A DNA stretch of 32,000 nucleotides from Mesoplasma florum L1 (GTDB lineage Bacteria; Bacillota_I; Bacilli_A; Mycoplasmatales; Mycoplasmataceae), in assembly GCF_000008305.1 (NCBI RefSeq), contig NC_006055.1, forward strand, positions 1-32,000, in the 5' to 3' direction. A program made the position numbers and the translations under genes. Positions within the stretch are counted from its first letter, which is position 1; each line of letters opens with the position of its first letter. The notes beneath the pieces are model-generated. The model was given only the letters and a program-made list of their open reading frames with translations. It did no database searches and had not been told where the DNA came from. This document shows, piece by piece, positions 4,280 through 31,148 of the stretch.

Positions 4280-5083
4280 ATGAAAGTTGAAGCAAAGAAA
4301 AAATTTGGTCAAAACTTTATTAGTGATCAAAATTTAATTAATAAGATAGTTTCAATATTAGGTAATGATAAAGATCAACTAATTATAGAAATTGGTCCAG
4401 GAACAGGAGCACTAACTAAATTACTTGCACAAAAATATAACAAAGTAGTAGCAATAGAAATTGATACTGACATGGAGCCTATTTTAAAAAAAGAAATAAC
4501 AAATGACAATTTCGAATTATTTCTTTCAGATGTGTTATTAGTTGATTTTGAAAAATTAATAAAAGAAAAAAGACAACATGAAAATCAAAAAGTTTCAATA
4601 ATTTCTAACATGCCTTACTATATAACAAGTGAAATACTTTTTAGAACATTAAATGTAAGTGATAAGTTAACAAAAGCTGTTTTTATGATGCAAAAAGAAG
4701 TTGCTATTAGAGTGTGTTCATATAAAGGCGAAAATAATTACAATAATCTTTCAGTTGCTTGTGAATTTTATGCAGATAAAAAATATGAGTTTACAGTTCC
4801 TAAACATATGTTCTACCCAGTACCGAAAGTGGATTCTGCAATAATATCATTAACATTCAACAATAAATACACTGAACAAATTAAAGACAAAGATAAATTC
4901 TTAACATTTTTAAGAAAAATATTTAATAACAGAAGAAAAACAATATTGAATAATTTATCAAATGTAACTAATGACAAAACAAAAGCTAATGAAATCCTTG
5001 ATAATCTTAATATTGATAAATCATTAAGACCTGAAGTAGTTGGTTTAGAAGACTTTATTAGAATTTACAACAAAACTAGATAA
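4280..5083 (+). CDS. rsmA: 16S rRNA (adenine1518/1519-N6)-dimethyltransferase
   Basis: RBS AGGTGA precedes ATG 4280. Motifs: KKKFGQNF, SAM-binding IIEIGPGTGALT, and NMPYYITS. Length is 267 aa. Confidence 0.93.
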   Translation: MKVEAKKKFGQNFISDQNLINKIVSILGNDKDQLIIEIGPGTGALTKLLAQKYNKVVAIEIDTDMEPILKKEITNDNFELFLSDVLLVDFEKLIKEKRQHENQKVSIISNMPYYITSEILFRTLNVSDKLTKAVFMMQKEVAIRVCSYKGENNYNNLSVACEFYADKKYEFTVPKHMFYPVPKVDSAIISLTFNNKYTEQIKDKDKFLTFLRKIFNNRRKTILNNLSNVTNDKTKANEILDNLNIDKSLRPEVVGLEDFIRIYNKTR

Positions 5084-27766: not shown

Positions 27767-29887
27767 ATGAAAAAACTATTATTAACACTATCATCTGTAC
27801 TTATAGTTGGAGGAGCCGCTGGTTCTGTTATTTCATGTGGTGTAAAGCCAGAAAAAGAAGTTGTCTTTGCCTTAATTGGTGGGTCAACAATGAGTGATAA
27901 TGACTTAGAAAAACTTAATGCATATAAAGAAATGGCTGATGAATTTAATAAAACACATTCCCAAGAAAATGGATTTGCTCCCATCAAGGTTGTCTGAAGA
28001 GATTCTAATTATCTTAATAATTCAGTTCTTTCTGGGGATAATTTACCTGACTTATATATATCTTATGTGGATGCTGCGTCAACATATCTTGAATCTACAG
28101 TTGCTGATCAAGTAAGAGATATGGAAGATTCTATGGGTGAAGAAGGTTTTACAAAGTTTACAAATGATTTAATAACACCAGCATTTATTAATGAGGGTAA
28201 ATATAAAGATACTCAAGTTGTTTTACCATTTGGTAAATCATTTGATATATCAGTTATTAATGTAAATTTATTGTTTGAATTTATGGGGCTATTTAAAAAT
28301 GCTGGAGTTGAAAAAAAACTAGAAGAGCTTAAAACAACATATGAAGCCTATAATATAAAAAGATCTGATGTTCTTGAGCAACAAACTGAAATGTCAGGAA
28401 CAAAAGTGTTTAAGGATAATTTAAAAATAGTAGGCTCAAACAATAATGAAATAAAATCAACAGAAAATGAAATTGTTTTAGAGGAAAGTAACTACAATTA
28501 TTTAATAAATCTTTTTACTAATGTGGAAAATAGTATTGAAGGTATTAAATCCATTTTTGCATCAACTGATAATGTTTTAGAATTGACAAAAGCAATGAAT
28601 CAAATAATTCAAAGTGATGGTTTAGATGTAACTATTAAAATTGATAATAATCAGTATGTAAAACCAAAAGAAAGATATAATTTTGCCTTTGGAATCGATT
28701 CTCTTGATAATAAATACTACATGGATTATGCATCAACTGATACTGGAACTGAAATTATTGATATTCAAAACAGTGAAGATTTTTGATATAAAGCAACTTA
28801 TGAAAATAAAAAAGCCAATATTGAATTGAATTCTAAATCTAAAAGCTTTAAGGATACATCAAAATACCTACAAGGTATGAAAGAAATTGCATTAAGCAAT
28901 AAAGGCCAAGAAAATAAGCTGACTTACTCTGAACAATGAAATGGAGTTTTCTCGACATCAAGATATGAACAGAATTCTCAGTCTAGAACATATATAACGC
29001 AAGATTTTACAAAAGGGACTATGTTTATGGGCGGTGCATCATCAGCAAATGATTTTTACTTTACTTCATCATGAACAAAAAAAGTAGATGTTTATAGGTC
29101 TCAAGAAACTTCGTCGGCAATAGCACAAGAAAATAAGAATGTAACTTACACGCCTGTTACTAGAGCAGATATTATAACAACATCCAAAACAAATGAGTCA
29201 AATCCACAAAAAGCTGTGTTTATGTCTCAAGGGAGAGGAATAGCTGGTTTTAAATCTAATGGTAGTAATGCTGCTCAAAAAGAAGAAAGTGTAAAAGGAT
29301 TTTTAAATTATATTATGCAGCCAATTCCTTCAGCAAGGTTTGCATTAAGAACAAGTTACATGCCAGCAACAAAATCAGGCATGTTAGTCTATGAAAATTA
29401 TTTAAATGGAAATTTCAATAATGCAAATGGAGAGCCTCAAAATCAAACAGAATTAGAAAAAGCAGTAAAAGAAATAGAACAAACGTATAATGGTAATGAA
29501 AAAATAACAGATTCAGAAATTAAGGAATTGGTTCCAAAATATTTTTATCAAATAATGACTAATGGTAAACCTGAATGAAAAGCCGGCATTAGTCCAGTTA
29601 ATACAGGATTTATAAATGATTATTTGAATCCAAAAATAGAAGATAATGATCCAAATATTAGTTTAGTTTCGTCAAAAGCAAATCCAGTGACTGATATAGT
29701 TAGAAGCGGTATTAAAAATTCAATAAATGGAACAAATACAATTATGGATTTAGCCAAAAAACCTAACATGAGTTTTTATGATTTATTAAGTGAAGCAAAA
29801 GATCCTAAAGACCCATCATATTTAACTTACTGATTAAGAAGAAATCAGGGTGATTTTTATCAAGAAATAAATATTAATCATAAATAA
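27767..29887 (+). CDS. Large surface lipoprotein with a solute-binding-protein-like (family 1 SBP) N-terminal region
   Basis: Signal peptide plus lipobox: MKKLLLTLSSVLIVGGAAGSVIS-C. SBP-like features: VVFALIGGS...LNAYKEMADEFNKTH and SGDNLPDLY. Five track fragments (27767, 28067, 29216, 29624 and the tail) share a frame, and I read the gaps by hand and found only TGA. Stop is TAA 29885-29887, giving 706 aa. Confidence 0.8.
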
Positions 29888-29918
29888 AAAATAATTCAAT
29901 AATAACTAACATTTATTT

Positions 29919-29946
29919 TTGAATTTTTAAATTGTATATTTATATA
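29919..29946 (+). promoter_or_regulatory. Candidate promoter of riboswitch cassette 1
   Basis: Two alternatives: TTGAAT (29919-29924) with a 16-nt spacer to TATATA (29941-29946), or TG-TATATT at 29933-29940. I cannot say from sequence which -10 is used. Confidence 0.4.
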
Positions 29947-29964
29947 GCAACTGAATATTAAGAA

Positions 29965-30090
29965 ACTTATACAGGGTAGCATAATGGGCTACTGACCCCG
30001 CCATGAAACCTATTTCATGACTATAGGTCTTTATAAACACTTTAATTAAAGTTTCTTTCAACATCAAAACTTGAAAGAAACTTTTTATTT
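29965..30090 (+). promoter_or_regulatory. Purine-riboswitch-family aptamer (guanine/2'-deoxyguanosine class) plus intrinsic-terminator expression platform, copy 1
   Basis: P1: CUUAUA (29966-71) pairs with UAUAGG (30022-27). P2: GUAGC-AUAAUGG-GCUAC. J2/3: UGACCCCGCC. P3: CAUGAAA-CCUA-UUUCAUG. A C sits at the specificity position in GA-C-UAUA. The terminator is AAAGTTTCTTTCAA (30048-61) / TTGAAAGAAACTTT (30071-84) followed by a T-run. The downstream gene starts at 30126. Confidence 0.85.
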
Positions 30091-30125
30091 AGTTGAATTT
30101 TTAATAAAAAGAAAGGAAAAACATA

Positions 30126-30965
30126 ATGAAAAAATTAATAGCAATTTTAGGGGCAGTTGGATTAACTGCTACAGGTTCAGCAAGTTTATTAGTTTCTTGC
30201 TCAACACCAGTTGAAAAAGATTTTTCTTCTGAAATAGGCAAAATGGTAAAAGATTACATAAAAATTGATCAGGGAACTATATATGAAGATTCAAATGAAA
30301 TTTATACAAAATTGAAATCGTTTAATAAAGAAATGGAATCTGAAATTTTAAAATTAAAAAATGTAGATGGAGTTTCAAAGTTTAATGAAAAAGAAGGAAC
30401 ATTTTCTGATCCTGATTCAAGCATTAAACCATCAAGCGCAGATGCGGTATGATTTCATTCAGTTTACACATCATCAAGTGTAAGCGAATTCTCAAATAAT
30501 AATGATTTTAATAAGTGAACAATTACTATTCAATACAGAACACCAGCAACTAATAAAACAACTGGTGAATTATATTGAGGAAAATATAATAAAACTTACA
30601 TAAATGATATTGAATTTTTTAAAGCTAAAAAACCTAATGCGATATTAAAAAACTCAGATGGAACAGAGCAATCAGAAAATTCTTTTACTCTTGTAGATAA
30701 TGAAGTAAAGATTAGAGTAGATAAAGGTTATAATAGAGAAAACATAATTCTTAATGGAAATGAAAAAATTACGGATATAAATATTTCACTTGATACTCAA
30801 TTATTTGAAGAACCTGAAATAAAATTAGGCAATGATAAATTCCCAACATATTTTGATTTAACACTTAAATTAAAACAGGGACAAACATTATCAGTAGACC
30901 AAAAAATATTTATTAAATTACCATCATTTCAAGATATTAAACTAATAATTAAAGCACAAAATTAA
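30126..30965 (+). CDS. Lipoprotein of unknown function (riboswitch cassette 1)
   Basis: RBS AAAGGA precedes ATG 30126. Signal peptide plus lipobox: MKKLIAILGAVGLTATGSASLLVS-C. I checked the frame codon by codon through TGA at 30450, 30516 and 30576 to TAA 30963-30965, giving 279 aa. I recognise no family. Confidence 0.85.
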
Positions 30966-30980: not shown

Positions 30981-31004
30981 TTTGTTAACAACTTAATATG
31001 AAAA

Positions 31005-31104
31005 ACTTATACAGGGTAGCATATTGGGCTACTGTTCCGCCTCAAGACCAATCTTGAGACTATAAGTGTAAAGGTTTTTTGGTTATCAAAAAACCTTTTT
31101 TATT
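31005..31104 (+). promoter_or_regulatory. Purine-riboswitch-family aptamer plus intrinsic-terminator expression platform, copy 2 (variant J2/3)
   Basis: P1: ACUUAUA (31005-11) pairs perfectly with UAUAAGU (31061-67). P2: GUAGC-AUAUUGG-GCUAC. J2/3: UGUUCCGCC. P3: CUCAAGA-CCAA-UCUUGAG, which is fully compensatory relative to copy 1. The terminator is a perfect 12-bp stem AAAGGTTTTTTG (31070-81) / CAAAAAACCTTT (31087-98) followed by TTTTATT. Confidence 0.85.
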
Positions 31105-31148
31105 ATCTAAAGTTTTTCTTTAGGTTGTATTCAAAATTAGGGGGAAAT

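Follow-up and report, generated by a model that had tools for sequence, protein, structure and literature searches.

What does a purine-type aptamer sense when it stands before a lipoprotein gene of Mesoplasma florum L1, in which direction does it switch the gene, and what could tie a surface protein to such a signal? The genome of this organism is a single 793,224-bp contig, in which TGA is read as Trp, and the window that we analyzed is its first 32 kb (32,000 nucleotides). Judged by its sequence, the segment 29965-30028 is a genuine 2'-deoxyguanosine (2'-dG) type riboswitch, already catalogued as such in Rfam. Moreover, the larger segment 29947-30095, the leader of mfl021, is in all likelihood a complete transcriptional 2'-dG-I riboswitch and a paralogue of the I-A element upstream of nrdF, OFF mechanism included. 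The 2'-dG-I class was defined in M. florum L1, and the copy in the mfl021 leader is presumably the "I-B" of Kim, Roth and Breaker (2007); in the literature that we searched, no paper with both I-A and I-B was found for M. florum, nor was the name mfl021. The riboswitch as such is nothing new, and the novelty, which is modest, lies in comparative observations and in a possible helix between the 5' and 3' ends of the leader that is specific to read-through transcripts.

The aptamer is made up of the following elements:

29965-30028, + strand: 2dG-I aptamer, a three-way junction of P1, P2 and P3 (RF01510 match, junctions and loops identical to those of I-A, covariation in P2 and P3)
29965-29971 with 30022-30028, + strand: P1, 7 pairs, one of them U.G
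30022-30028, + strand: strand A, the 3' strand of P1, UAUAGGU (Rfam alignment and predicted folds)
J1/2: CAG
P2: GGUAGC/GCUACU, that is, GUAGC/GCUAC plus a closing G.U pair
L2: AUAAUGG, 7 nt
29994-30001: J2/3, GACCCCGC
30002-30008 with 30013-30019: P3, CAUGAAA/UUUCAUG
L3: CCUA, 4 nt
J3/1: AC, with C30021 at the specificity position

This segment matches RF01510 (the Rfam 2dG-I family, gathering score 51) with 87.4 bits and an E value of 3.7e-18 over the full model (positions 1-63), and the fold of 29950-30100 has a z score of -4.2 against dinucleotide shuffles. Rfam profile searches of the whole M. florum L1 genome returned seven RF01510 matches, a second one within the window being at 31005-31067, and one RF00167 match. 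The initial annotation had listed a short P2, its L2, an L3 of CCUA, a J2/3 rich in C and, just ahead of the P1 3' strand, a C, all of which are present in the sequence, and had assigned a pocket of the 2'-dG type. The assignment holds: in addition to the RF01510 match, J2/3 GACCCCGC (GACCCGC plus one C) occurs in only two of the seven genomic copies, this one and the nrdF copy, and the three ligand-contacting C residues expected from the alignment to I-A are present at C29972, C29999 and C30021, the contacts in I-A itself being C31, C58 and C80 (PMC6847200). An above-threshold three-way junction, short L2 and L3 loops (7 and 4 nt) and a type I pocket thus place the copy in the 2dG-I class. 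The canonical guanine riboswitch (xpt type, RF00167) shares with it the three-way junction, the C at the specificity position and the L2-L3 kissing interaction, but the J2/3 of the mfl021 copy is C-rich rather than U-rich and its L2 and L3 are shortened. Nor is the copy a canonical guanine member: a C is found at 29999, where a U contacts the purine sugar edge, and RF00167 matches genome-wide only at 484045-484139. This last element, on the minus strand, precedes a gene for a 509-aa protein; read by eye, its specificity position is a U, so that the element looks adenine-type.

I-A (mfl/dGsw), the best-known copy, given in the initial annotation as preceding ribonucleotide reductase genes, lies upstream of nrdF (mfl530) in the same genome, with its aptamer at 625525-625588; it belongs to RF01510 and has a crystal structure (3SKI). 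The two leaders are 84% identical over about 230 nt, from just upstream of the aptamer to beyond the U-tract. J1/2, L2, J2/3 with its extra C, L3 and J3/1 are identical, that is, all junction and loop nucleotides, and the aptamers differ only at four P3 positions, with pairing kept, and at one P1 pair, U-A in I-A and U.G in the mfl021 copy. As measured by ITC, I-A binds 2'-dG with a Kd of 190 nM and discriminates 27-fold against guanosine (PMC6847200), and we infer that the mfl021 copy binds 2'-dG as well. Across the type-I set of 11 sequences, 96.8% of the cells are paired and seven pairs are changed on both sides, a number matched in none of 500 shuffles, with slid partners giving 0-2; in P3, comparison with the I-B orthologues of two sister genomes reveals both-side changes from U-A to A-U and from C-G to G-C. 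Because the type-I sequences are close relatives, this covariation is supportive rather than decisive. In a second M. florum strain, the aptamer likewise scores 87.4 bits against the Rfam model, consistent with an unchanged sequence. The other RF01510 variants of M. florum (at 31005 and 31976 in the window, and at 668875, 778204 and 397045 in the genome) share the shortened purine-riboswitch fold, have a terminator after the aptamer and mostly precede lipoprotein or transport genes, but their J2/3 lacks the extra C (GAACCGC, GUUCCGC, GACCUGC) and their platforms differ. Kim et al. are said to have found that several other M. florum variants keep nucleobase binding. Finally, 2'-dG-II riboswitches (Bacteroidota and environmental sequences) have the same proposed ligand, but are of independent origin, with another pocket context and in another phylum; 2'-dG-II genes act on DNA or encode surface proteins (ComEC, endonuclease I, phospholipase D; PMC8872408).

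The direction of switching depends on the expression platform, which together with the signals for initiation and translation comprises the following features:

29935-29940, + strand: TATATT, the -10 box of a promoter that belongs to the cassette itself (Dataset EV1 of Matteau et al. 2020, given there as 29934-29940, half-open; checked in the sequence)
29947, + strand: transcription start, a G (5'-RACE, 853 read starts; PMC7745072, Dataset EV1)
29960-29968, + strand: strand P (AAGAAACUU), the 5' partner in the antiterminator helix, overlapping the 5' strand of P1 and forming 9 standard pairs with 30049-30057
30048-30061, + strand: strand T, the 5' arm of the terminator, of which 30049-30057 (AAGUUUCUU) alternatively pairs with strand P
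30071-30090, + strand: strand H, the 3' arm of the terminator (30071-30084) with the U-tract UUUUUAUUU (30082-30090)
30111-30117, + strand: GAAAGGA, the ribosome-binding site, 8 nt upstream of the ATG (direct sequence reading)

A terminator had been implied by the initial annotation, and one is found: a 14-bp stem (30048-30061 with 30071-30084) with a 9-nt loop and a U-tract running to 30090, overlooked by a simple scanner because the loop limit of the scanner was 8. The same hairpin appears in an independent published prediction (stem 30051-30081, dG -9.7; PMC7745072). The antiterminator is the 9-bp P:T helix formed by AAGAAACUU (29960-29968) and AAGUUUCUU (30049-30057). Strand P is invariant in all 11 leaders of the type-I set, drawn from eight species-level genomes, and AAAGUUUCUUU of strand T is invariant in the 10 that keep the terminator, one copy without the hairpin being the sole exception. 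The element had been delimited as 29965-30090; the element stands, but not this extent, as the functional unit runs from the start at G29947 and includes the 5' switching strand 29960-29968. The helix made by that strand had been missed, and GAAAC of P3 with GUUUC of the terminator had been taken as the only antiterminator candidate. We rejected the latter pairing, which is 5 bp long, not conserved and absent from all predicted intermediates.

In stepwise folding from the mapped start, the aptamer is formed at 81 nt; in transcripts ending at 30057-30070, the predicted fold contains the P:T antiterminator alongside intact P2 and P3, and from 30084 onward, once strand H is made, the terminator wins. 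The alternative-fold calculation suggested in the initial annotation, carried out stepwise with RNAfold, thus places the P:T helix in the minimum-energy folds of the intermediate transcripts. Mutually exclusive P:A, P:T and T:H helices followed by a U-tract, the P/A/T/H design of an OFF switch, are found in the pair lists as well as in the stepwise folds. I-A has the same P/A/T/H platform, with invariant strands P and T and the same conserved post-terminator sequence, and for I-A the four strands, the P:T antiterminator and OFF switching under kinetic control have been described by NMR, SHAPE and kinetics (PMC5838219, PMC12268651). Since the P:T helix is homologous to that of I-A and is present in the predicted minimum-energy folds, OFF is the expected direction, which had been held to be undecidable by eye. 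Homology and predicted folds taken together, the mfl021 copy is probably an OFF switch that acts by ligand-dependent intrinsic termination at 30048-30090. For annotation, the gain is a switch direction (OFF) and an antiterminator assigned to the mfl021 copy by homology to I-A.

The free-energy gap between aptamer and antiterminator is 6.1-6.7 kcal/mol in the mfl021 copy and 5.6-5.7 kcal/mol in I-A. By an estimate made without a tool, a Kd near 0.2 uM corresponds to roughly 9.5 kcal/mol; the gap lies within this value, so that ligand binding could tip the balance. The antiterminator of the mfl021 copy is the shorter one (9 bp and -8.8 kcal/mol, versus 11 bp and -11.8 kcal/mol in I-A), and because of this and of the U.G pair in P1, the set-point may differ from that of I-A; the terminator loop and distal stem also differ, as does the controlled gene, an orphan lipoprotein gene in one case and a ribonucleotide reductase gene in the other. 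As paralogues with near-identical energetics, the two leaders form a natural pair in which to ask how a single ligand might set different thresholds at two promoters.

In the mechanism that we propose, RNA polymerase would either initiate at G29947 or arrive from mfl020. After transcription of the aptamer (29965-30028), 2'-deoxyguanosine could bind in its junction, and binding would lock P1, in which strand P is paired with strand A. In the absence of ligand, nascent strand T (30049-30057) would capture strand P (29960-29968), and the resulting 9-bp antiterminator would permit read-through into mfl021. With ligand, strand T would be free to pair with strand H, forming the 14-bp terminator, and transcription would stop at the U-tract, at about 30085-30090. 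The net outcome would be a kinetically controlled OFF switch, with mfl021 off when deoxyguanosine is plentiful.

Published transcription data bear on how the leader is used. The promoter signal is 123 read starts per million for the mfl021 copy and 2370 for I-A (PMC7745072). According to the same study, TU_017 ends at the 30048-30090 hairpin, where the mfl020 transcript terminates too, and a curator's note identifies the terminators downstream of peg.20, 21 and 22 as riboswitches (PMC7745072). Riboswitch control of a lipoprotein gene, which the initial annotation implied to be a surprise, is therefore not new, since the M. florum L1 transcription-unit table already marks this terminator as a riboswitch (PMC7745072). 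We find no other terminator between mfl020 and mfl021; as mfl020 is without a terminator of its own and the published unit ends at that of the riboswitch, transcripts from the mfl020 promoter would also be gated by the aptamer. mfl020 (27767-29887) codes for a 706-aa P68-family-like lipoprotein. The mfl021 mRNA has a mean of about 3249 FPKM and the protein has been detected with 28 peptides (PMC7745072); since mfl021 is well expressed in rich medium, repression is at most partial under those conditions. In public RNA runs (Logan contigs, small runs), the contigs break at sequences common to the other six leaders.

Two further segments of the leader are complementary to each other:

29948-29957, + strand: extreme 5' leader, CAACUGAAUA, complementary to 30086-30095 (RNAfold folds and duplex analysis of seven leaders)
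30086-30095, + strand: segment that follows the terminator and is complementary to the transcript's 5' end

Because 30086-30095 is past the terminator, this helix is possible only in read-through transcripts. Possibly, it may sequester the 5' end and stabilize the full-length mRNA. Complementarity between the 5' end and the sequence after the U-tract is seen in five of the seven M. florum leaders, with 10 bp in the mfl021 copy. For the mfl022 leader, the duplex of about 30990-31011 with 31107-31126 has an energy of -17.4 kcal/mol, compared with -7.8 +/- 2.2 kcal/mol in shuffled leaders. The complementarity is conserved in the genus, and one-sided changes retain pairing.

The gene behind the leader and the relatives of its product are the following:

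30126-30965, + strand: mfl021, a 279-aa lipoprotein (genetic code 4, three TGA codons read as Trp, lipobox VSC, Cys25)
M. florum protein, 98% identical to mfl021
M. tabanidae P0007, 39% identical
Spiroplasma culicicola P0008, 32% identical

The gene is peg.21 (30125-30965) in the tables of Matteau et al. 2020 (PMC7745072), and its description as a 279-aa lipoprotein gene in the initial annotation agrees with the match to a signal peptide and lipobox. Sequence searches found only the three relatives listed. In Pfam nothing significant was found, NCBIfam matches only a Mollicute lipoprotein signal peptide, and an atlas search returned only generic Mollicute lipoprotein clusters. In the AlphaFold model, which is of moderate confidence (pLDDT 75.8), a helical segment at the N-terminus leads into beta-sandwich domains; the C-terminal domain has only generic Ig-like/MSP-like beta-sandwich matches (Foldseek E of 3e-3 or higher, VIA Z of 7.6 or lower), and no enzyme or catalytic, nuclease or nucleoside-binding fold was recognized in the model by Foldseek or VIA.

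Leaders like I-B, with the same pocket, the U.G pair in P1 and the same upstream leader, are found in M. tabanidae (G001) and in a second relative (G003), where they precede a different lipoprotein of 172-174 aa. DNA homology of 29912-30173 to L026:720-988 and L051:2108-2330 begins at the promoter and breaks off after signal-peptide codon 16. The breakpoint lies within the signal-peptide coding region, and the mature domain that follows is of the mfl021 type in the window and of the 172-174-aa type in G001 and G003. The I-B orthologue of M. tabanidae (L010:875-933, G001:C1:26466-26524) has kept the aptamer and the U-tract and has lost the whole terminator hairpin, so that the platform is dispensable in at least one lineage. 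At this locus, a gene for an IS30-type transposase is found just upstream, and a transposase fragment follows the mfl021 homologue. In M. tabanidae, the mature domain of the mfl021 type is preceded by the next aptamer, which is 63 nt long and has GACCCGC as its J2/3. With mfl021 as the query, this type of mature domain was not found in G003, G002 or G004; conversely, a search of the M. florum L1 genome for the 172-aa lipoprotein type found none. We therefore reject the idea that riboswitch and gene form a simple orthologous pair in the different species, given that the I-B leader precedes a different lipoprotein in two relatives.

S. culicicola (CP006681.1) has two near-identical aptamers with short loops (L052:3851-3914 and 4915-4978; RF01510 scores of 58.5 and 57.9 bits). 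The one with 58.5 bits precedes the mfl021 homologue and has J2/3 GUCUCUAC, which we take to resemble the canonical guanine type; no obvious intrinsic terminator was found after this first aptamer. The next gene, also preceded by an aptamer, codes for an SBP_bac_8 lipoprotein and is followed by genes for a DHH/DHHA1 phosphoesterase and a MalK-like ABC ATPase. This arrangement parallels that of mfl023, just downstream in the window, which encodes a 692-aa lipoprotein behind its own aptamer. In the window as well, the neighbor of mfl021 on its downstream side is thus a binding-lipoprotein gene with an aptamer in front. A gene for AP-endonuclease-2 lies just upstream of the S. culicicola aptamer pair.

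The simplest reading of these data is an ancestral array of aptamer/signal-peptide/mature-domain cassettes, from which lineages would have lost units or re-paired them by recombination within the leader and signal-peptide repeats. In all three species with mfl021 homologues (M. florum, M. tabanidae and S. culicicola), the gene is directly behind a 2dG-I-family aptamer. The comparative data support a conserved regulon link but not a specific biochemical role. We suggest, tentatively and with some doubt, that the orphan lipoproteins of the mfl021 family (helical segment plus Ig-like domains) could be a conserved accessory of a nucleic-acid/nucleoside scavenging module gated by guanine/2'-dG riboswitches, and that leader and signal-peptide modules have been swapped between mature domains through recombination inside the stretch that encodes the signal peptide, placing the same surface protein under pockets that differ from species to species. 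For a function-less Mollicute surface protein, this provides a link to the scavenging of deoxynucleosides or DNA that can be tested, because its homologues are consistently gated by 2dG-I-family aptamers and adjoin an importer operon.

The fold and the OFF logic would also hold if the cellular ligand were another guanine compound (guanine, guanosine or a nucleotide). Other pockets do precede mfl021-family genes, the 63-nt form with GACCCGC in M. tabanidae and GUCUCUAC in S. culicicola, and since the pockets differ across species, the gene seems not to demand 2'-dG specifically; nevertheless, the identity of all junction and loop nucleotides to those of I-A, with its 2'-dG Kd of 190 nM (PMC6847200), makes a different ligand unlikely for the mfl021 copy. 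It may likewise be asked whether the aptamer is an evolutionary passenger, 30048-30090 being mainly a constitutive, leaky terminator of mfl020 with negligible ligand control of mfl021. That this is the only terminator between the two genes and the published end of TU_017, that the cargo of the I-B leader varies by species, that the hairpin is lost in the M. tabanidae copy and that mfl021 is highly expressed all agree with such a scenario. However, the cassette has its own promoter and a start at 29947, substitutions in P3 are compensatory and the junction has been invariant since the duplication, strands P and T are invariant, and the second M. florum strain retains the score of 87.4 bits; we regard a passenger role as quite improbable.

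An ON switch, in which the ligand promotes read-through, for example via pairing of P3 with the terminator, draws on the ability of GAAAC in P3 (30005-30009) to pair with GUUUC (30051-30055). This pairing, however, comprises only 5 bp and would require P3 to melt, it occurs in no predicted intermediate, and the other type-I copies carry CAAAC instead of GAAAC; moreover, I-A, with its homologous platform, is an OFF switch. An ON switch is thus extremely improbable, and a 2'-dG-responsive OFF switch remains the reading that we prefer.

In two relatives (L018 and L047), 2dG-I-family aptamers precede genes for proteins with an N-terminal RH..PDGDAYGSQLGL motif, which by eye look like DHH-family phosphoesterases. 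If these proteins do belong to the DHH family, their genes would add to the riboswitch-gated ones that hint at a turnover of oligonucleotides.
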